From IMG/VR virus record IMGVR_UViG_3300022758_000051: a stretch of 6,155 nt of DNA; one strand, 5' to 3'. This document shows positions 287 to 6,155 of the stretch, piece by piece. The stretch's first letter is position 1, and each line of letters begins with the position of its first letter. The stretch is from a virus. A model generated the notes under the pieces. The model saw nothing but the letters and a program-made list of their open reading frames with translations, did no database searches and was not told where the DNA came from. A program made the translations under genes and the position numbers.

Positions 287-359
287 TAATATTTGGAAAA
301 TTGTAATTGGCGCTGTTTCTGCCGCCTTAGGTTATATTCTTAACGCTATTGGATTATGA
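276..359 (+). CDS. 27-aa single-pass membrane peptide (MKSNNIWKIVIGAVSAALGYILNAIGL); candidate holin-like or lysis accessory peptide
   Basis: ATG at 276. The N-terminus is polar and basic (K2, K8), followed by an uninterrupted hydrophobic stretch of about 19 residues. About half of the third codon positions are T. The stop TGA (357-359) overlaps the ATG (356-358) of the peptidase gene as ATGA. The stretch 287-355 is otherwise unassigned in a very compact genome. Confidence 0.4.
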   Translation: MKSNNIWKIVIGAVSAALGYILNAIGL

Positions 360-664
360 ATTATTCTCTTGTTTCTTTTCTTGAGAGTCTGTTATACTTT
401 AATGTTCATTTTACGATAACTAGTGCTCGTCGTACTCCCGAACAGAATAAGGCTTGTAATGGCGTTCCTACATCTCAGCATTTGACTGGAGAGGCTCTTG
501 ATATTAAACCTTATGGTTCTACTACTTATAATCGGTTGCTTGAATTTATTCATAGATATTCGGACGATGTTCATGTGTTTGATCAGCTGATATTGTATCC
601 TACATTTATTCACATTTCATTTGGCGTTCGTAATCGTCATCAAGTGATTGATAAACGTAAATAA
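356..664 (+). CDS. Zinc D,D-/L,D-peptidase of family M15 (Peptidase_M15_3-like), 102 aa; putative endolysin
   Basis: ITSARRTPEQNKACNGVPTSQHLTGEALDI matches the family signature (SgyR..N...GG...SqHl.G.AaDi). The predicted Zn ligands are H42 (nt 479-481), D49 (500-502) and the distal H86 in FIHISF (611-613). The protein is minimal in size, with no signal peptide or cell-wall-binding domain. Confidence 0.8.
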   Translation: MNYSLVSFLESLLYFNVHFTITSARRTPEQNKACNGVPTSQHLTGEALDIKPYGSTTYNRLLEFIHRYSDDVHVFDQLILYPTFIHISFGVRNRHQVIDKRK

Positions 665-666
665 TT

Positions 667-2346
667 ATGAAATTTTCTCCTGATTTGTTTAAGGCTGCTG
701 ATCATTGTCAGCATCGTTCGTTTATTACGAATAAATATACTGGTGCACGTATTGCCGTAGATTGTGGTCAATGCGATTACTGTATCCATAAGAGAGCTAA
801 AAAGGCGTCCATGCGTGTGAAGACTGCTGGAAGTGCTTTCAAGTACTCTTATTTTGTTACTTTGACTTATGATAATGTTCATATTCCTCTTATGAATTGT
901 AAGGTTCTTCACAGTGAATATGAGGATGTCGTAGGCATTTCAGGAGATATTCATTTTGGTAATGAACATCATCAATATATCCCTGTTTCTGAATATAAAT
1001 GTGATGATAACTCCGCGTTGCGTCATATATTCTTCGAACAGGTTCAAGGCACTGTGCCGTATGACCGTGAAATTAAGGAATATATACCTGTTAGGGACAA
1101 TTGGTTTCTTAGTATGGATGCTATTCGTAGTTTTATCTATAAGTCGCAATCCGTTGACAAAACGGATTATTCCGCTTCTGCGCAATACGGTCGTGATAAT
1201 CTTATTCCCTTCCTGAATTATGTTGATGTTCAGAATTATATTAAACGTTTGCGTAAACATTTATTTCAACAATTAGGTTCCTATGAGACGTTACATTTCT
1301 ACGCTGTGGGTGAGTACGGACCCGTACACTTCCGCCCGCATTATCATCTCCTATTATTCACAAACTCGGACGAAGTCGCCCAGGTTCTACGATACTGTCA
1401 CGATAAGAGTTGGAGACTCGGTCGTTCAGATTTCCAACGTTCCGCTGGTGGAGCTGGTTCGTACGTTGCGAGTTACGTTAACAGCCTGTGCGCTGCTCCC
1501 TTGTTATATCGCTCATGCTGCGCGTTTAAACCCAGGTCGCGAGCGTCTGTCGGATTCTTTGAGAAGGGTTGCGACTACGTGGAAGGCGAAGACCCTTATG
1601 CGCAAATTGAACAGAAAATCGATTCTGTTGTTAACGGAAGAGTCTATAACTTCAACGGCGTCAGTGTTCGGTCAACTCCACCCCTGTCGTATATCCGTGC
1701 CTTATTGCCCCGATTCTCGTCTGCTCGCAATGACGATGGTGTTGCGATTACTAGAATTCTTCGCGCTGTTCACCGAACGCCACAGAGAATTGCAAGATTC
1801 GGATTCGTTGATTATAACCGGGACTCAATCTTGAGTCTTGTCCGTGCTTATTATCAATACCTTAAGGTTAATTCTATTCTTACTGATGATGATAAGATTA
1901 TATTACATGCTTCTCGGTGTCTTACTAGGTTCTGTAACAGTTCTAGCGATGTCGATATTGAGTCTTATATTAATAAGTTATATAGGCTGTTCTTATATGT
2001 CTCTAAGTTCTTCCGTAACTGGCATTTGCCTGACTTCGGTTCTGATATTGGTGCTTACTCCGGTCGTATTGATTATATTATTAAGACAGGTATAGAATAT
2101 GAGAAGAAAAAGGATTATGAAGATATGCGAAGTGTATATGGCCTTCGTTCCCAATACCCCGAACTTTCAGATTGTATGTTTGTTCTGCCACAGAACGGGC
2201 AGGAACTTGATGTCTTGTCAGATGTTTCGTGTGAAACGCTCCAACTTCTTGAGCAGCTCCGGTATCGTAGTTCGACATTCTGTCGTGATATGATTAAACA
2301 TAAGTCTCTTAATGATGCTAATAATATATTCAATCGTATGGTTTAA
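667..2346 (+). CDS. VP4: Rolling-circle replication initiator, HUH endonuclease superfamily (Microviridae VP4 / gpA-like), 559 aa
   Basis: Cys cluster CGQCDYC (aa 33-39). Motif I FVTLTY (aa 63-68, nt 853-870). HUH motif HYHLLLF (H225-Y-H227, nt 1339-1347). Double-tyrosine motif YVASYVNS (Y266 and Y270, nt 1462-1476), which closely resembles the phiX174 gpA YVAKYVNK active site. Confidence 0.9.
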   Translation: MKFSPDLFKAADHCQHRSFITNKYTGARIAVDCGQCDYCIHKRAKKASMRVKTAGSAFKYSYFVTLTYDNVHIPLMNCKVLHSEYEDVVGISGDIHFGNEHHQYIPVSEYKCDDNSALRHIFFEQVQGTVPYDREIKEYIPVRDNWFLSMDAIRSFIYKSQSVDKTDYSASAQYGRDNLIPFLNYVDVQNYIKRLRKHLFQQLGSYETLHFYAVGEYGPVHFRPHYHLLLFTNSDEVAQVLRYCHDKSWRLGRSDFQRSAGGAGSYVASYVNSLCAAPLLYRSCCAFKPRSRASVGFFEKGCDYVEGEDPYAQIEQKIDSVVNGRVYNFNGVSVRSTPPLSYIRALLPRFSSARNDDGVAITRILRAVHRTPQRIARFGFVDYNRDSILSLVRAYYQYLKVNSILTDDDKIILHASRCLTRFCNSSSDVDIESYINKLYRLFLYVSKFFRNWHLPDFGSDIGAYSGRIDYIIKTGIEYEKKKDYEDMRSVYGLRSQYPELSDCMFVLPQNGQELDVLSDVSCETLQLLEQLRYRSSTFCRDMIKHKSLNDANNIFNRMV

Positions 2347-2364: not shown

Positions 2365-4116
2365 ATGAGTGATTTTAATCCCTTGGACAGAGCGAAAATT
2401 TCTACCCATCGCTCGTCTTTCGACTTAAGTTCGAAAAAGTTGTTTACCGCTAAAGTCGGTGAAATTCTCCCCTGTTATTGGCAGATTGCTATTCCTGGTA
2501 ATAAGTATCGTATTTCTTCGGATTGGTTTACCCGTACTGTTCCGGTAAATACTGCTGCCTATACCCGTATCAAGGAATATTACGACTTTTACGCTGTGCC
2601 GTTACGTCTGATTTCCCGTGCGCTTCCGCAGGCGTTTACTCAGATGACGGATTATATGACTAGTGCATCTAGTTCTTCTGCGAATGCATCTGCCCTTATT
2701 TCTGTACCTAATGTTTCTCAGAACGCACTTAACCTGTTTCTTCTGACTGCTAATGCCGGTGATCAACCTAACACTCGTGACGATGCTGGCCTTCCTATTG
2801 TCTATGGTTCTTGCAAGTTGCTTGATCTGCTTGGTTATGGTTCTATGATTGCTAGTGATAATAAAGGTAAGGCTGCTATTACTCAAAAGTATCTAGGTGT
2901 TGATGGTCTTGGTGACGCTGCCAACCCTTTGGTTTATCAGTCTTCACAGACAGTTAGTGCTCTTCCATTTCTTGCTTATCAGAAGATTTACTATGATTTC
3001 TTTAGTAATTCTCAATGGGAAAAGCATAAGGCTTATGCTTATAATGTAGACTATTGGTCCGGTGCTGGTAATATTTCATTGGGTACAGATATGGTTCAGC
3101 TTCGTTATGCGAACTATCCTAAGGATTACTTTATGGGAATGCTTCCTAGTTCACAATACGGTTCGGTATCTATTCTTCCTTCGTTGAATCCTCTTCGTGA
3201 TTCTCGTTTGATTACGTTGAGTTCTTCTCCTCACCCTGATGCTTCTTCTTCTGTCACTGTATCTAATCCTGCTGCTGGTAATGACTTGATTTCTTCCTCT
3301 GTCAATTCTACTTCTTCTGTTAGGTATGCGTTTCTCAATAGTGATCTGTCAGCGTTGAGTCTTCGTGCTACTGAATACTTGCAGCGTTGGAAAGAGGTAG
3401 TGCAATTCTCTAGCAAAGATTATTCTGACCAAATGGCTGCTCAGTTCGGTATTAAGGCTCCTGAATATATGGGAAACCATTCGTATTATATTGGTGGTTG
3501 GTCTAGCGTAATTAATATTAATGAAGTTGTTAATACCAACCTTGATACTGATTCTTCTCAGGCTTCTATTGCCGGTAAAGGTGTATCCAGTAATTCAGGC
3601 CATACTCTTACTTATGACTGTGGTGCTGAGCATCAGGTAATTATGTGTGTATATCATGCTGTGCCTATGTTGGACTGGAATCTGACGGGCCAGTCTCCCC
3701 AGTTGACCGTGACCGCTATATCCGACTTTCCGCAGCCTGCGTTTGACCAGCTTGGTATGCAGGCCGTCCCCGCTCTGAATCTTCAGAATAATCCAGGTCG
3801 TAACGTTTCCGGTTCTCTAGGTTACAATCTTCGTTATTGGCAATGGAAGTCTAATATTGATACTGTTCACGCCGGATTCCGTGCTGGTGCTGCTTATCAG
3901 TCTTGGGCTGCTCCTCTTGACGGTTGGCAGGTATTGACTTCCTCCGGTTCTTGGTCTTATCAGTCTATGAAGGTTCGTCCTCAACAGCTGAACTCTATAT
4001 TCGTCCCACAGATTGATGCTACTAACTGTTCGGTTGCATTTGACCAGTTATTGTGTAATGTTAACTTCCAGGTGTATGCTGTTCAGAACTTGGATAGAAA
4101 TGGTTTACCTTATTAA
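2365..4116 (+). CDS. VP1: Major capsid protein (Microviridae VP1 / F-like), 583 aa
   Basis: The N-terminal region (RSSFDLSSKKLFTAKVGEILPCYWQIAIPGNKY...VPVNTAAYTRIKEYYDFYAVPLRLI) has the pattern typical of Microviridae capsid proteins. It is the largest ORF, with a size and position appropriate for VP1. Confidence 0.93.
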   Translation: MSDFNPLDRAKISTHRSSFDLSSKKLFTAKVGEILPCYWQIAIPGNKYRISSDWFTRTVPVNTAAYTRIKEYYDFYAVPLRLISRALPQAFTQMTDYMTSASSSSANASALISVPNVSQNALNLFLLTANAGDQPNTRDDAGLPIVYGSCKLLDLLGYGSMIASDNKGKAAITQKYLGVDGLGDAANPLVYQSSQTVSALPFLAYQKIYYDFFSNSQWEKHKAYAYNVDYWSGAGNISLGTDMVQLRYANYPKDYFMGMLPSSQYGSVSILPSLNPLRDSRLITLSSSPHPDASSSVTVSNPAAGNDLISSSVNSTSSVRYAFLNSDLSALSLRATEYLQRWKEVVQFSSKDYSDQMAAQFGIKAPEYMGNHSYYIGGWSSVININEVVNTNLDTDSSQASIAGKGVSSNSGHTLTYDCGAEHQVIMCVYHAVPMLDWNLTGQSPQLTVTAISDFPQPAFDQLGMQAVPALNLQNNPGRNVSGSLGYNLRYWQWKSNIDTVHAGFRAGAAYQSWAAPLDGWQVLTSSGSWSYQSMKVRPQQLNSIFVPQIDATNCSVAFDQLLCNVNFQVYAVQNLDRNGLPY

Positions 4117-4127
4117 TTTGTATTGTT

Positions 4128-4568
4128 ATGAGAAATTTTGCTTATAAAAATCCGGATTATATTAAAAATGAGGTTGTTCCGGAATTGATTGAAGATCATC
4201 CCTGTTATCAACAGTCTGTATATGATACAGTTATGTACGATGAATCTCCCGATGGTGATTTGATTCAAAATGATATGACGCAGATTCTTCTTAATCAGGA
4301 GAAGTATCGTCGTTTACTTGGTGATATGAATGTTCAGAATATTCTTGCTCAAATGCATCCTACTCAGTCTACTATAATGGATGGTATGACTGATGAAGAA
4401 CGTTTTGATTGTGTTATCTCCCGTCATTGTCAAACTATGTCTGAACGTCAGGCTGTTTTGCAGCAGTTGGCTAGTGAGAAATCTGAGTTGTCGGCTTATG
4501 CCGAGACTATGTTGGCAGAGACTAAGGCAGCGCCGTCTACGGATTCCGCATCTGCCTCTCCTGAGTAA
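4128..4568 (+). CDS. Acidic 146-aa protein; putative internal scaffolding protein (VP3-like) by size, charge and position only
   Basis: A clean ORF with the T-rich third-position bias. It is D/E/Q-rich with an Ala/Ser-rich tail. It lies between the capsid and pilot genes, and its stop overlaps the next start (TAATG at 4566-4570). I recognise no diagnostic motif. Confidence 0.55.
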   Translation: MRNFAYKNPDYIKNEVVPELIEDHPCYQQSVYDTVMYDESPDGDLIQNDMTQILLNQEKYRRLLGDMNVQNILAQMHPTQSTIMDGMTDEERFDCVISRHCQTMSERQAVLQQLASEKSELSAYAETMLAETKAAPSTDSASASPE

Positions 4569-5671
4569 TGGGTTTATTTGACGCTATAGCTTCTTCAGCT
4601 GCTAGCCTTACCGACAATATTGTCGGTATGGTTAATCAGAATCATCAGAATAAGGTTAACCTTCGTATGATGCGTGAACAAAACGCATTTAATGCTGAAC
4701 AGGCTCAAATTCAACGTGATTGGCAGCAACAAATGTGGGGCATGAATAATGCTTATAATTCTCCTAGCGCTATGATTTCTCGTGGCTTGAATCCATTTGT
4801 CCAAGGTTCTGCTGCTATGGCTGGTTCTAAGTCTCCTGCATCTAGCGGAGCTGCTGCTACCGCTGCCCCTGTTCCTAGCATGCAAGCTTATAAACCTAAT
4901 TTTTCCGGTGTGTTTCAATCTCTTGCTTCTCTTGCTCAAGCTAAGGCTTCTGATGCTGCAGCTGGCGAATCAGGCTCTCGTGCTCGTCAGACTGATACGG
5001 TAACCCCTCTTTTGTCGGACTATTATAGAGGTCTTACTAATTGGAAGAATTTGGCTATTGGTTCTTCCGGTTACTGGAATAAGGAAACGGGTCGTATATC
5101 TGCCGCCCTAGATCAGTCTACTGAAGCTCAAAATCTGAAGAATGCACAGTTTGCTGAACGTATATCGGCTGCGCAGGAGACACAAATCTTGCTTAATTCT
5201 GACGCCCAGCGTGTTATAAATAGATATATGGATCAGAGTCAACAGGCTGATTTGTTCATTAAGGCGCAAACGCTAGTCAATCTTCAAGCTCAAGGTGCTC
5301 TTACGGAGAAGCAGATTCAGACTGAAATCCAGCGTGCTATTCTTATTTCTGCTGAATCTTCCGGCAAGAAAATTGATAATCGTGTTGCTTCTGAAACTGC
5401 CGGTTCTCTAATTAAGGCTGCTAATGCTTCCCATGAATTGCAGTATCGTGATAGTATGTATGATTATAAGAATGTCAAGTTCCGTAAGCATACGGAGTAT
5501 AAAACCTCTATGGCTCAGCAAAAAGCCGCCGAATATGGTGCTGAACTGTCTCGTAAACAAGGCCGTACTCATTATTGGGAATCTGTATCACGCGGTCTTG
5601 GTTCTATTGCTTCCGGTTCCGGTAATGTAATTGGAGCTGGTATCCGTCTAGGCTCTAGCAGTAGGAGATAA
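4568..5671 (+). CDS. VP2: Minor capsid / DNA pilot protein (Microviridae VP2 / H-like), 367 aa
   Basis: The N-terminal MGLFDAI... is followed by REQNAFNAEQAQIQRDWQQQMWGMNNAYNSPSAMISRGLNPF, which matches the conserved VP2 block (..A..Q..fqe.Msnt.yq....d...aGLNP). Then come an Ala/Ser-rich linker, a long helical Q/A/E-rich region and a Gly/Ser-rich C-terminus. Confidence 0.85.
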   Translation: MGLFDAIASSAASLTDNIVGMVNQNHQNKVNLRMMREQNAFNAEQAQIQRDWQQQMWGMNNAYNSPSAMISRGLNPFVQGSAAMAGSKSPASSGAAATAAPVPSMQAYKPNFSGVFQSLASLAQAKASDAAAGESGSRARQTDTVTPLLSDYYRGLTNWKNLAIGSSGYWNKETGRISAALDQSTEAQNLKNAQFAERISAAQETQILLNSDAQRVINRYMDQSQQADLFIKAQTLVNLQAQGALTEKQIQTEIQRAILISAESSGKKIDNRVASETAGSLIKAANASHELQYRDSMYDYKNVKFRKHTEYKTSMAQQKAAEYGAELSRKQGRTHYWESVSRGLGSIASGSGNVIGAGIRLGSSSRR

Positions 5672-5689
5672 CATACTTTAGGACTAGAA

Positions 5690-5736
5690 GCCCATCGCGG
5701 CGCTTGAGCGATATACACCCGCCGCCCGCGTAGGGC
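5690..5736 (+). repeat. Imperfect GC-rich inverted repeat (hairpin H1)
   Basis: GCCC (5690-5693) pairs with GGGC (5733-5736), and CGCGG (5696-5700) pairs with CCGCG (5726-5730), across a 2x2 internal loop. An alternative register pairs GCGGCG (5697-5702) with CGCCGC (5720-5725). Confidence 0.7.
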
Positions 5737-5748
5737 CTGGTCGAAAAA

Positions 5749-5794
5749 CGGAGCGGAGCGACTTCCTTATAAGAGCGTTCCGCTCTGGTATTTT
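5749..5794 (+). terminator. Candidate intrinsic terminator downstream of VP2 (hairpin H2 plus T-run)
   Basis: A 12-bp stem, CGGAGCGGAGCG (5749-5760) with CGTTCCGCTCTG (5776-5787), includes two G-T(U) wobbles (5750/5786 and 5758/5778). The loop is 15 nt and contains the palindrome CTTATAAG. An A5 run precedes the stem (5744-5748), and GTATTTT follows it (T4 at 5791-5794). Confidence 0.4.
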
Positions 5795-5840
5795 AGCACG
5801 GAGTGCGTAAAGGCAGGTTCTATCTGACCTGCCGTGCCTA
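5794..5840 (+). repeat. Nested inverted repeat (hairpin H3)
   Basis: The inner 7-bp stem is GGCAGGT (5812-5818) with ACCTGCC (5827-5833), around an 8-nt loop. The outer stem is TAGCAC (5794-5799) with GTGC(C)TA (5834-5840), carrying one bulged C. The two are separated by an asymmetric internal loop. Confidence 0.65.
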
Positions 5841-5869
5841 TACACCCTTGTATACATTCACTTATTTCC

Positions 5870-5896
5870 CCTGGATCTATTAGTAATGGATCTAGG
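5870..5896 (+). promoter_or_regulatory. 12-bp hairpin H4 with a GC-rich base and AT-rich apex (ATTAGTAAT); candidate Rep nick or origin hairpin
   Basis: CCTGGATCTATT (5870-5881) pairs with AATGGATCTAGG (5885-5896), with G-T wobbles at 5873/5893 and 5878/5888 and a 3-nt loop, AGT. The two arms also contain the 8-nt direct repeat TGGATCTA (5872-5879 and 5887-5894) and two GATC sites. Confidence 0.3.
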
Positions 5897-5920
5897 ACGT
5901 GTTAATTAAGCGAAGCCCCT

Positions 5921-5989
5921 AGTTGTGTGCGAAGCAAATCCGAGTTATCCTCTCGGATTCTCCATTCCCTTGTCCATAAACGCACAACT
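5921..5989 (+). repeat. Hairpin H5 (8 bp perfect) enclosed by a long-range stem H6
   Basis: H5 is AATCCGAG (5937-5944) with CTCGGATT (5952-5959), around a 7-nt loop TTATCCT. H6 is AGTTG(TG)TGCG (5921-5931) with CGCACAACT (5981-5989), with a 2-nt bulge. Confidence 0.6.
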
Positions 5990-6028
5990 CACACTCCATC
6001 ACAAATGGTCCTCTCCCCACAAATTTCT

Positions 6029-6155
6029 AAAAAAAATATTTGGAGATACAAAAAAAACTCATACCTTTGCCCATGTGGAAGTTACAACTATTATTAACAT
6101 TTTAAAATTTATTACAATTATGCAAAAGTTTATTATCTCAGTTAAAGATAAAAAT
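6029..6155. repeat. Terminal redundancy, copy 2 (identical to 1-127)
   Basis: Same as copy 1. It also duplicates the promoter and the first 36 nt of the 92..286 ORF (ATG at 6120). Confidence 0.95.
6039..6069 (+). promoter_or_regulatory. Same promoter in its native context at the end of the intergenic region (duplicate of 11-41)
   Basis: TTTG at 6039-6042 and TACCTTTG at 6062-6069. Identical by virtue of the terminal overlap. Confidence 0.5.

Follow-up and report, generated by a model that had tools for sequence, protein, structure and literature searches.

Conserved Structured Element Downstream of VP2

The window, i.e., the whole stretch of 6,155 nt from the IMG/VR record IMGVR_UViG_3300022758_000051 that was analysed, contains a circular microvirus genome of 6,028 nt, in which a conserved structured non-coding element follows the VP2 gene (Table 1). 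We suggest that this element is probably the origin region of the ssDNA genome and that it works as folded + strand DNA, mainly as the complementary-strand origin. In distant microviruses, clusters of DNA mini-hairpins and the fold of the 3′ domain are found again at the corresponding place in the genome.

The block had been read as non-coding from its sequence, and this was confirmed, with the VP2 stop codon at 5669-5671 and the next ATG only at 6120. Coding potential was ruled out based on stops, periodicity and indel lengths: no stop-free stretch is kept across the homologues (minimum 30-32 aa), 3-nt periodicity is absent in the block (0.095/0.100/0.089), and the indels are mostly not multiples of 3. 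On the 3′ side, the non-coding region is bounded by the promoter at 6039-6069, which we take to be of the Bacteroidota type and whose two TTTG blocks are unchanged throughout a 13-species alignment.

It had also been proposed that the block is compositionally foreign, with 40/60 G+C at 5701-5760 against 19-22/60 in typical coding lines. The former value is correct and belongs to the highest 60-nt line of the genome, but the latter was too low, the median line having 25/60 and coding lines reaching up to 36/60. Given these coding lines and a G+C content of 50% for the element versus 41% for the genome, the element is elevated in G+C, not foreign.

Table 1. Features of the structured element and its 3′ flank in the window.
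Feature	Position	Strand	Remarks
Conserved structured non-coding element, whole	5672-5994	+	5′ domain 5672-5860, optional insert, 3′ domain 5905-5994
Hairpin A, ATCGC/GCGAT, 9-nt loop	5694-5712	+	Pair 5697/5709 GC:91, AT:7, CG:4; 100% of cells paired
Invariant, mostly unpaired block GATATACACCCGCC	5710-5723	+	Same in 104/104 copies, 5710-5722 being fixed by the pattern that recruited the IMG/VR copies
Hairpin B, GCCC-GCGTA-GGGC	5724-5736	+	Pair 5727/5733 CG:100, TA:4
Invariant CTG directly 3′ of hairpin B	5737-5739	+	Within the search pattern, yet invariant in 13 BLAST-recruited sequences
Mini-hairpin M1, GCGGAGC (GNA triloop)	5753-5759	+	Stem invariant, middle loop base variable
Hairpin C, AGAGCG-TTC-CGCTCT, then GGTATTTTAG; terminator-like	5772-5796	+	Pair 5773/5785 GC:66, AT:33
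Hairpin D, GCAC-GGA-GTGC (C-GNA-G closing)	5796-5806	+	Pair 5798/5804 AT:77, GC:27, without exception
Hairpin E, GGCAGGT/ACCTGCC	5812-5833	+	Four pairs changed on both sides
Near-palindromic hairpin insert (H4 of the sequence-only reading), optional, outside the core	5870-5896	+	Strict word test, 104 copies
3′ domain, ~90 nt	5905-5994	+	Covariance model and deep alignment
Mini-hairpin M2, GCGAAGC	5910-5916	+	In 3′ domain
Helix G	5921-5928 with 5982-5989	+	In 3′ domain
Stacked mini-hairpin M3, GCGAAGC	5929-5935	+	In 3′ domain
Hairpin H	5937-5944 with 5952-5959	+	In 3′ domain
Pyrimidine-rich single-stranded loop, 22 nt	In 3′ domain	+	CTTGTC at 5969-5974
Tail CACAC	5990-5994	+	End of 3′ domain
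Promoter, presumably Bacteroidota-type, TTTG-N19-TACCTTTG, for the next gene (ATG 6120)	6039-6069	+	Flanks the element, outside it

Folding and Covariation

More than 100 genomes of related microviruses carry the element. In GenBank, 34 microvirus records are 71-90% identical to it, and in IMG/VR it was found in 99 contigs. A separate, protein-anchored sampling of IMG/VR yielded close relatives alone and is no measure of breadth. The alignment comprised 104 distinct copies of the element.

The strong + strand folding that had been expected was recovered in comparison with dinucleotide shuffles. It reached -56.7 kcal/mol with z = -5.39 under DNA parameters, and the RNA parameters did as well (z = -5.83), while the z-scores of the - strand were only -2.69 and -2.26. 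In addition, ten helices are maintained through compensatory changes in the 104 homologues. Over 48 pairs, 97.4% of the alignment cells are paired and 21/48 pairs are changed on both sides; 258 compensatory cells were observed against a shuffle mean of 65 (0/500 as high), and slid controls gave ≤65.

Strand specificity had initially been argued from G-T wobble pairs in the stems. This argument fails to generalise, as the variable pairs comprise 53 G·T versus 59 A·C cells, but the specificity itself is real, being seen in the asymmetry of the z-scores, in the invariant pair T5928·G5982 and in the GNA mini-hairpins restricted to the + strand. It should be noted that the + strand is the mRNA sense too, so strand bias alone cannot tell DNA from RNA.

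Six hairpins (H1-H6) had been drawn in the block, and the alignment allowed us to sort them. H5 (5937-5959) and H6 (5921-5989) are retained on compensatory changes across the 104 homologues, as are the inner hairpin of H1 (5694-5712) and the core of H3 (5812-5833). The outer stem of H1 was discarded because the change G5733->A is compensated at C5727 (CG:100, TA:4) and not at C5693 (CA:4), so the true hairpin is 5724-5736. The outer stem of H3 loses to the hairpin 5796-5806. Similarly, H2 (5749-5787) gives way to the local hairpin 5772-5786, in which the pair 5773/5785 covaries (GC:66/AT:33), whereas the H2 pairing would imply 31 A·C and many G·T cells. H4 is an optional insert rather than a core feature, 91/104 copies being without it, 11 carrying it in forward and 2 in inverted orientation (strict word test).

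Hairpin E has two alternative sequence forms among the copies, and only 87% of its cells are paired because the alignment does not bring these two forms into register. In the 104-copy set, the search pattern itself dictated much of the invariance of 5710-5739, but the 13 sequences recruited by BLAST, independently of that pattern, likewise show no variation in the block 5710-5723. M1 reads GCGAAGC in some clades. A long-range pairing of 5750-5759 with 5910-5919, given by RNAalifold, was rejected since it is without covariation, both sides being invariant; a double change from GCGAAGC to ACGAAGT in one copy (L017) favours local mini-hairpins over this pairing.

DNA Mini-Hairpins

Each copy of the element contains 3-4 mini-hairpins of the type N-C-GNA-G-N′ on the + strand, and 95/104 copies have none on the - strand. 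For the strict motif, the count in the element of the window is 3 versus 0.38 in dinucleotide shuffles (31/5000). In the VP2-to-VP4 gaps of 10 outgroup genomes, 26 strict motifs were found on the + strand versus 3.2 +/- 1.8 in shuffled sequences (0/1000), and 11 on the - strand versus 5.3 expected.

The hairpins d(GCGNAGC) and d(GCGNNAGC) have extraordinary stability in DNA form and far less in RNA form, and they are poorly bound by SSB (PMC13037366). Such mini-hairpins sit at the primase start of the oric of G4, St-1 and alpha3; furthermore, RSF1010 ssiA has the mini-hairpin CCGAAGG, and the N4 vRNAP promoters contain GCGGAGC (PMC13037366). As positive controls, the same scan detected GCGAAAGC of G4 at 3977, inside the annotated primer (3970-3997) and beside oric (3998), and GCGAAGC of phiX174 at 2358, in the F-G intergenic ori(-) region. 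A CCGAAGG mini-hairpin also lies ~30 nt 3′ of the ori(+) nick of phiX174, and G4 carries CCGAAGG in gene A. Since a mini-hairpin flanks ori(+) as well in phiX174 and apparently in G4, the motif marks an origin but not which one.

The 3′ Domain in Distant Microviruses

The covariance model R1, trained on the window clade alone, gave full-length + strand matches after VP2 in 6 outgroups (E <= 0.02) and a weaker top match at the 3′ domain fold in 3 further outgroups; the model R2 brought in a tenth outgroup with this fold. The 3′ fold is present in 10/13 outgroup microviruses, in which it lies after the pilot-protein gene (VP2) on the + strand and has different stem sequences. The capsid protein (VP1) of the outgroups is mostly 30-38% identical. 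In the deep alignment of the 3′ domain, 96.9% of cells are paired versus 31-44% when slid, 16/20 pairs are changed on both sides, and CT(T/C)G, unpaired after the pyrimidine run, is kept in 15/15 rows. As judged by the models, what distantly related microviruses have in common in the 3′ domain is its shape and not its sequence. Unlike the 3′ domain, the 5′ domain was found in 0/13 outgroups. The shared word CGATATACA was considered as a general feature and rejected, being present in only 2/13 outgroups.

Proposed Function

Based on the folding, the mini-hairpins and the known minus-strand origins, we suggest the following pathway for the element. Once inside the cell, the circular + strand would be coated by host SSB, and the cluster of very stable hairpins, including the 3-4 C-GNA-G mini-hairpins that bind SSB poorly, would remain folded. 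The folded cluster would expose defined single-stranded segments to the host priming machinery, and primase, primosome or RNA polymerase would make a primer there for complementary-strand synthesis. The models for such priming are the minus-strand origins of G4, St-1, alpha3 and phiX174 and the plasmid sso/ssi signals. By this analogy we infer priming at the element by whichever host enzyme, with the CTG at 5737-5739 as one candidate start. The 3′ domain may be the core of the priming signal or, alternatively, a nick/termination site of Rep (VP4). It is also possible that hairpin C with its T-run terminates late transcripts.

A single-strand origin was the conservative interpretation in the sequence-only reading, and it is the best supported one after the present analysis, given the covariation, the mini-hairpins and the recurrence in distant microviruses; it is a probable reading, and the 3′ domain is possibly ori(+). 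A complementary-strand hairpin signal is expected in every microvirus (PMC9865509). On the other hand, ~300 nt with long invariant unpaired blocks exceeds the need of the known microvirus minus-strand origins of 55-140 nt.

A broader and much more tentative proposal can be made for the 90-nt 3′ domain, with its two GNA mini-hairpins, long-range helix, hairpin and CTYGTC...ACAC frame. It might be an unrecognised origin module of many gut, probably Bacteroidota-infecting, microviruses that joins Rep nick/termination and host priming in one folded-DNA device, mini-hairpin clusters then being a general origin signature across Microviridae. In a further variant, the 3′ domain may act as a conserved phage non-coding RNA.

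Alternative Explanations

An alternative that we consider rather unlikely is a viral-strand origin (dso, ori(+)) within the element, its most plausible place being the 3′ domain. There Rep would bind, nick the + strand so that rolling-circle synthesis can begin, and finish each round by cleavage and rejoining. The Rep of this phage is VP4, an HUH-type protein (Pfam REP_ORF2-G2P, E = 1.7e-14), and HUH nucleases commonly cut ssDNA displayed by hairpins. Candidate nick positions are YYCTTG/TC (5969-5974) of the pyrimidine-rich loop and the loop of hairpin H, and an ori(+) here would leave room for a complementary-strand origin in the 5′ domain. The much deeper conservation of the 3′ domain than of the 5′ domain (10/13 versus 0/13 outgroups) agrees with this assignment; in Bullavirinae, ori(+) is conserved and ori(-) differs, being of the primosome type in phiX174 and of the primase type in G4. 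The unpaired CT(T/C)G kept in the deep alignment is reminiscent of CTTG/ATA, the nick site of phiX174 (G4305/A4306), near which the CCGAAGG mini-hairpin shared with gene A of G4 is located. However, the match to the nick motif consists of CTTG, 4/7 bases, and the next bases are TCC, not ATA; where the pC194-family origins have CTTGATA (PMC10378824), the element reads CTTGTCC at 5969-5975. The resemblance of the invariant stretch GATATACACCCGCC-hairpin-CGAAAAA to the phiX174 ori(+) flank is suggestive (score 31, 0/2000 shuffles as high), but an unrelated coding stretch scores 32 against the same flank. The score of 23 against the M13/f1 gpII origin lacks significance, as 9% of shuffles do equally well, and the presence of GNA triloops on one strand only indicates function in the single-stranded form. 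The literature searched here yielded a mapped replication origin for no microvirus outside the phiX174/G4 group.

A structured RNA was another alternative raised from the sequence. Here the block, transcribed with the late genes, would terminate or stabilise the message from its 3′ UTR or else be processed to a phage non-coding RNA. The block has the same sense as all genes and comes straight after the last late gene without a terminator between them, its fold has z = -5.8 under RNA parameters, and covariation cannot separate RNA from ssDNA. Furthermore, hairpin C with GGUAUUUUAG is the sole terminator-like match in the region, and dual use has a precedent in phiX174, where the terminator T_F overlaps ori(-). 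These points lend the RNA alternative weak support, but the DNA-specific features oppose it as the main role. The recurrent motif, a 2-bp stem with a C:G-closed GNA triloop, has exceptional stability in DNA but not in RNA, and in 5 copies a 2-bp GCGNAGC mini-hairpin, which is unable to terminate transcription, stands in place of hairpin C. The element is without a promoter of its own, and most of it lies downstream of the candidate terminator. No match was obtained in Rfam 15 even at E <= 10 (best 12.6-18 bits versus gathering thresholds of 34-42), and the tRNA/tmRNA scan of the element found none. Given the DNA-specific features, RNA is unlikely to be the main role of the element. It is highly improbable that the block is a host-derived or recombination module (attP/dif-like), which had also been proposed, with XerC/D-type integration, or that it is other horizontally acquired foreign DNA. 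The raised G+C content of the element (50% versus 41% for the genome) could be read in this way, some Bacteroidetes microviruses occur as proviruses (PMC3394797), and the palindrome TGTATACA at 5849-5856 counted for an attP/dif-like site, but the segment with this palindrome is lost in several clades. Among 185,579 bacterial and archaeal genomes, neither domain pattern was genuinely matched, the sole match (L112) being dismissed as a 17-nt chance match, and blastn against 72,556 plasmids (PLSDB) gave no match to the element. The oversized contigs are strain chimeras (chimeric concatemers); in the only one with a bacterial flank (L060), the junction is inside the capsid gene (VP1), 2.2 kb from the element, and no integration junction at the element was found in the long contigs checked. 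In the absence of any bacterial, archaeal or plasmid copy in these collections and of a junction at the element, a host-derived or attP/dif module is unsupported. In addition, the divergence of the element follows that of the genome.

Comparison with Known Systems

The oric of G4, St-1 and alpha3 is, like the element, an intergenic + strand hairpin cluster in a microvirus and contains a mini-hairpin of the GCGNNAGC/GCGNAGC type, known at the priming site in the G4 group. The primase-start CTG of G4 (3996-3998) lies just 3′ of hairpin I, as the CTG of the element (5737-5739) lies just 3′ of hairpin B, and the poor SSB binding of mini-hairpins, a principle proposed for the G4 group, is proposed here as well. 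The two differ in size, the element having ~320 nt, ~10 helices and 3-4 mini-hairpins and the G4-type origin ~135 nt, three hairpins and one mini-hairpin. They also differ in position (after the pilot-protein gene versus between the F and G genes) and in host, which for the phage of the element is probably Bacteroidota. The 3′ domain model R2 revealed no homology to the oric of G4, its best match in the G4 genome (E = 7.8) being away from the origin, and gave nothing significant in phiX174 (E = 4.4).

The ori(-) of phiX174 is likewise a hairpin region in the non-coding + strand, where it is bound by host replication proteins (PriA/n′ primosome). It has GCGAAGC nearby (2358) and overlaps the terminator T_F, and the element combines GCGAAGC with the terminator-like hairpin C. 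The ori(-) site itself is a single hairpin of ~55 nt. The dso of phiX174 and pC194 shares with the element an unpaired CTTG after a pyrimidine run and a mini-hairpin nearby, whereas the bases after CTTG differ; the ori(+) of phiX174 is situated inside gene A and needs no hairpin.

The plasmid signals ssoA, ssoT and ssoU are structured, orientation-specific non-coding DNA of 150-300 nt, on which host enzymes prime the lagging strand and which is active solely when single-stranded (PMC5714925). The sso signals and RSF1010 ssiA/ssiB resemble the element as highly structured, strand-specific non-coding DNA, and the CCGAAGG variant of the mini-hairpin in RSF1010 ssiA also occurs in the family of the element. 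However, their replicons are plasmids and that of the element is a phage, and the CS-6 motif of ssoA, TAGCG(A/T), is absent from both strands of 5672-6030. The reekeekee- and roodoodooviruses have non-coding hairpins beside the Rep gene, of conserved sequence and with compensatory substitutions, which were tentatively tied to negative-strand initiation (PMC9865509). Their hairpins are simple, one or two in number and 13-64 nt in length, whereas the element is multi-domain, contains DNA mini-hairpins and includes a 90-nt domain whose fold is kept across very divergent lineages.

In the animal gut, microviruses outside the phiX174/G4 group rank with the most abundant ssDNA phages, and the role of hairpins in uncultured microvirus clades was left uncertified (PMC9865509). 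An exact origin candidate is now available with base-pair-level structure, and mapping of primers, Rep nicking assays and SSB footprinting can address the origin question directly. The covariance model already transfers to lineages of ~30-38% capsid identity, and the + strand C-GNA-G cluster is a simple sequence signature that correctly picks out both mapped origins, those of G4 and phiX174. For phagemid or ssDNA-production vectors in Bacteroidota, the element provides a defined cis-acting part. Some GenBank records carry spurious 'hypothetical protein' calls over the element, and the covariance model should therefore improve annotation.

Genome Organization and Composition

The window represents a complete circular genome (6,028 nt) of a microvirus, since its bases 1–127 are repeated at 6029–6155 (terminal redundancy of 127 nt). 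The + strand carries all genes, and the circular join is spanned by the first ORF as well as by the non-coding region. The sole long non-coding stretch extends from the VP2 stop codon to the next ATG (6120), and the structured element (5672–5994) occupies its 5′ three-quarters. A promoter, of Bacteroidota type by its consensus, lies within the last 80 nt of this stretch, upstream of the first small ORF (ATG 92/6120); its two TTTG blocks do not vary among 13 related species. The promoter type and the M15 peptidase gene point to a Bacteroidota host. Also upstream of the first ORF, the segment ACAACTATTATTAAC (6084–6098) loosely resembles the phiX174 nick region CAACTTGATATTAATAAC; because only TTATTAA is kept among relatives, it may be just 5′ UTR.

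Genes, promoter and predicted helices of the window
Feature	Position	Strand	Remarks
M15 peptidase	356–664	+	
Rep protein VP4	667–2346	+	Pfam REP_ORF2-G2P
F-type major capsid protein VP1	2365–4116	+	
Scaffold-like ORF	4128–4568	+	
Pilot protein VP2	4568–5671	+	stop 5669–5671
Hairpin A	5694–5698 with 5708–5712	+	
Hairpin B	5724–5727 with 5733–5736	+	
Mini-hairpin M1	5753–5759	+	GCGGAGC
Hairpin C	5772–5777 with 5781–5786	+	
Hairpin D	5796–5799 with 5803–5806	+	closes as C-GGA-G
Hairpin E	5812–5818 with 5827–5833	+	
Mini-hairpin M2	5910–5916	+	GCGAAGC
Helix G	5921–5928 with 5982–5989	+	
Mini-hairpin M3	5929–5935	+	GCGAAGC
Hairpin H	5937–5944 with 5952–5959	+	
Bacteroidota-type promoter	6039–6069 (also 11–41)	+	TTTG-N19-TACCTTTG; TTTG 6039–6042, TACCTTTG 6062–6069

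The sequence-only reading had called the block compositionally foreign. Its count of 40/60 G+C at 5701–5760 is correct and marks the highest line in the genome; the foreign composition itself was not confirmed, the median line having 25/60 and coding lines up to 36/60 (G+C is 50% in the element versus 41% in the genome). The non-coding nature of the region was upheld by 104 homologues, in which the longest stop-free stretch falls to 30–32 aa, variability lacks a period of 3 nt and the length of most indels is not divisible by three. Since the homologues give no coding signal, the "hypothetical protein" CDS overlying the element in Dulem virus 242 (L007, PP511392, 358–684) is probably spurious. 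In two other copies (L008 and L010), such a CDS is annotated just upstream of the element (260–412), and Dulem 254 and 255 have an additional insert of ~160 nt between VP2 and the element.

Conservation and Covariation of the Element

Thirty-four microvirus records in GenBank, originating from samples of dog, human and lemur, contain the block at 71–90% identity, a conservation equal to that of the remaining genome. Based on tblastn of VP1 in the phage collection, 34 records showed at least 66% identity to the window, all of them bearing the element, and the next values were 38% or lower. Given this sharp gap, the element-bearing viruses form, by capsid sequence, a discrete clade, perhaps at the genus level.

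Further copies were recruited from IMG/VR by an invariant 30-mer pattern (99 contigs, nearly all ~6 kb), and alignment A2 comprised 104 distinct copies. Because the pattern is exact and falls within the element, the invariance of 5710–5739 is overstated in this set; the same segment was equally invariant in an independent BLAST-recruited set (n = 13). Oversized IMG/VR contigs, considered as integrated copies, proved to be strain-chimeric concatemers. In L060 (IMGVR_UViG_3300029235_000108, 6341–7720), a bacterial response-regulator gene of sigma-54 type adjoins a microvirus genome. The junction falls inside VP1, and the contig is therefore probably a chimeric assembly rather than a provirus.

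RNAalifold proposed 48 pairs on A2. A model-free scan for perfectly covarying columns contradicted some of them, as well as several stems of the sequence-only reading, and therefore a ten-helix structure was assembled by hand and then tested on A2. It paired 97.4% of cells, versus 25–43% with partners slid by 1–3 columns, and both sides had changed in 21 of 48 pairs. The covariation sought among homologous intergenic regions is thus present, with 258 compensatory cells, whereas shuffles averaged 65 (none of 500 attained 258) and slid controls had at most 65.

Among the six hairpins drawn earlier (H1–H6), H5 and H6 covary strongly. Only the inner parts of H1 and H3 held: G5733-to-A is accompanied by a compensating change at 5727 (CG:100, TA:4) rather than at 5693 of the outer H1 stem (CA:4), and the outer H3 stem is beaten by hairpin D (AT:77, GC:27). 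H2 gives way to hairpin C, whose pair 5773/5785 is GC:66, AT:33, while H2 pairing would leave 31 A.C cells. H4 is an optional near-palindromic insert, CCTGGATCTATTAGTAATGGATCTAGG (5870–5896), carried by a minority of copies (absent from ~87%). It is found as the reverse complement in two genomes (L085 and L095), pointing to flip-flop inversion or to insertion in both orientations.

In five copies (L012, L014, L016, L038 and L069), a GCGNAGC mini-hairpin stands in place of the 6-bp hairpin C (window 5772–5786 equivalent), with the flanking GGTAYTTTAGC retained. Here, one stable DNA hairpin has been exchanged for another of different sequence. The copy in L096 (IMGVR_UViG_3300020029_000054) is 420 nt long owing to the tandem duplication of a segment running from TCGAAAAATGGAGCGG to GTATACATCCA, which holds M1 along with hairpins C–E.

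Strand Specificity and Mini-Hairpins

A fold favoured on the + strand had been proposed from G-T wobble pairs. The fold is strand-specific, although the wobble argument does not generalise (53 G.T versus 59 A.C cells among variable pairs). Against dinucleotide-preserving shuffles, the + strand of 5672–6028 folds far better (z of −5.39 with DNA and −5.83 with RNA parameters), whereas the − strand reaches only −2.69 and −2.26, respectively. In addition, the T5928.G5982 pair is invariant in 104/104 copies. The most telling of the three grounds is the recurrence of a single loop type on one strand: N-C-GNA-G-N′ units number 3–4 per copy on the + strand and are absent from the − strand in 95 of 104 copies. 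Their outer pair covaries (GCGAAGC, CCGAAGG and ACGAAGT, i.e., GC:67, CG:28, AT:8). The element contains three strict motifs versus 0.38 in dinucleotide shuffles (31/5000), and the entire window has six on both strands versus 1.66 expected.

As DNA, the d(GCGNAGC) and d(GCGNNAGC) "mini-hairpins" have extraordinary stability, and they bind SSB poorly; their RNA versions are much less stable (Tm of r(GCGAAAGC) 39 °C), according to a 2026 review by their discoverers (PMC13037366). The same review places GCGAAAGC or GCGTTAGC exactly at the primase primer site of the G4, St-1 and alpha3 complementary-strand origins, CCGAAGG in RSF1010 ssiA, and GCGGAGC in the phage N4 virion RNA polymerase promoters.

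As a positive control, G4 (L180) and phiX174 (L181) were scanned with the same motif expression. The G4 + strand gave four matches, including GCGAAAGC at 3977, within the annotated primer (3970–3997) adjoining the annotated complementary-strand origin (3998), with CTG at 3996–3998. G4 also has CCGAAGG at 882 inside gene A. In phiX174, the F-G intergenic region, which holds ori(−), has GCGAAGC at 2358, inside a hairpin (2353–2373) that is functionally important per a complete-mutagenesis study. At 4333 in gene A, ~30 nt downstream of the ori(+) nick (G4305/A4306), phiX174 carries in addition a CCGAAGG mini-hairpin (CCCCGAAGGGG), followed by ACGAAAAA; PMC13037366 treats the mini-hairpins of minus-strand origins and not this one. 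The motif thus marks replication origins in classical microviruses, of both kinds in phiX174 at least.

The 3′ Domain in Divergent Microviruses

Thirteen outgroup genomes, with VP1 mostly 30–38% identical (one 25%, one 39%), retain the order VP1-VP3-VP2-gap-VP4 with large, unannotated gaps, and blastn of the element against them found no similarity. In the ten with annotated boundaries, the gaps contained 26 strict motifs on the + strand versus 3.2 ± 1.8 in dinucleotide shuffles (0/1000 attained 26), and 11 versus 5.3 on the − strand.

By eye, the layout of the 3′ domain (5905–5994) is recognisable in five outgroups (L119, L116, L125, L120 and L121), with wholly different stem sequences. A mini-hairpin precedes the 5′ strand of helix G; a stacked mini-hairpin and then hairpin H come next, followed by a pyrimidine-rich loop carrying CTTGTC, and the 3′ strand of helix G leads into a (G/C)ACAC tail. 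A covariance model of this domain, R1, trained on 28 window-clade sequences only, matched the + strand at full length in six outgroups, each time in the gap after VP2 (E = 4e-7, 7e-6, 9e-6, 3e-4, 6e-4 and 0.02), and gave a weaker top match (E 0.3–0.9) at the same place in three more, E-values of such home-made models being rough and the outgroups numbering 13. In a 15-sequence deep alignment, which was fitted to the model and is hence biased towards structure, 96.9% of cells paired versus 31–44% when slid, with both-side changes in 16 of 20 pairs. The rebuilt model, R2, gained a tenth outgroup outside its training set (L126, E = 0.007) and gave no match in G4, in phiX174 or in the M13 origin. 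The CGNAG loops, an unpaired CT(T/C)G(T)C, the 3′ ACAC, and the A-n-T-T and A-A-n-T of the helix G base are conserved throughout.

The word CGATATACA of the window's invariant block also occurs in L116 (OM869668, 3606–3634) and on the reverse strand of L117 (MT135331, ~308–330), and none of the remaining 11 outgroups has it. Peromfec RodF7_5 carries it as the 3′ arm of a 9-bp hairpin, GTATATCGC-GCTTA-GCGATATAC, resembling hairpin A. This word could be a Rep or primase site.

Proposed Function

On evidence that is entirely computational, we suggest that the element probably functions as folded single-stranded DNA in replication, with host priming of the complementary strand. This proposal is based on the selection of the fold on the packaged strand, the DNA-specific stability of the loop motifs, the five copies that trade a 6-bp hairpin for a 2-bp mini-hairpin stable only as DNA, the recurrence of the motif class at an equivalent position in sequences that are unrelated, and its coincidence with the mapped origins of G4 and phiX174. 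A purely RNA function is considerably less likely; an Rfam scan of the region yielded noise only, and tRNA and tmRNA scans yielded none. A host-derived or attP/dif module, entertained in the sequence-only reading, is highly improbable; the element is absent from 185,579 representative bacterial and archaeal genomes and 72,556 plasmids, where the lone match was a 17-nt chance match.

The main rival, partly complementary to host priming, is that the 3′ domain serves as the Rep-recognised viral-strand origin, which we regard as unlikely, though less so than an RNA role. The 3′ domain is deeply conserved; in Bullavirinae, the conserved origin is ori(+), whereas ori(−) differs between phiX174 and G4. 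Moreover, the domain contains an unpaired pyrimidine run that ends in CTTG, reminiscent of the phiX174 nick CTTG/ATA and the CTTGATA of pC194-family origins. However, the nick-motif match is four bases only, the resemblance to the phiX174 ori(+) flank is no more than suggestive and that to M13 is not significant.

In the established model, SSB coats the incoming + strand, stable hairpins stay exposed and host enzymes prime there (PMC5714925, PMC9865509, PMC13037366). Under the host-priming proposal, the hairpins of the element would likewise remain exposed on the SSB-coated strand, and complementary-strand synthesis would be primed at them by host enzymes. By analogy with G4, the invariant CTG immediately following hairpin B (5737–5739) is a candidate priming start.

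Conserved intergenic microvirus hairpins and mini-hairpins at G4-type origins are already known; in other uncultured microviruses, such hairpins with compensatory changes were tentatively tied to minus-strand initiation (PMC9865509). Within a limited literature search, the multi-domain element, the several mini-hairpins in one element and the 90-nt domain whose fold is kept across very divergent gut microviruses appear to be new. Clusters of + strand mini-hairpins may predict origins in Microviridae, as this small sample suggests. Finally, hairpin C with GGTATTTTAG is the sole terminator-like site in the region and lies within the element; as the T_F terminator of phiX174 overlaps ori(−), it may also end late transcripts.
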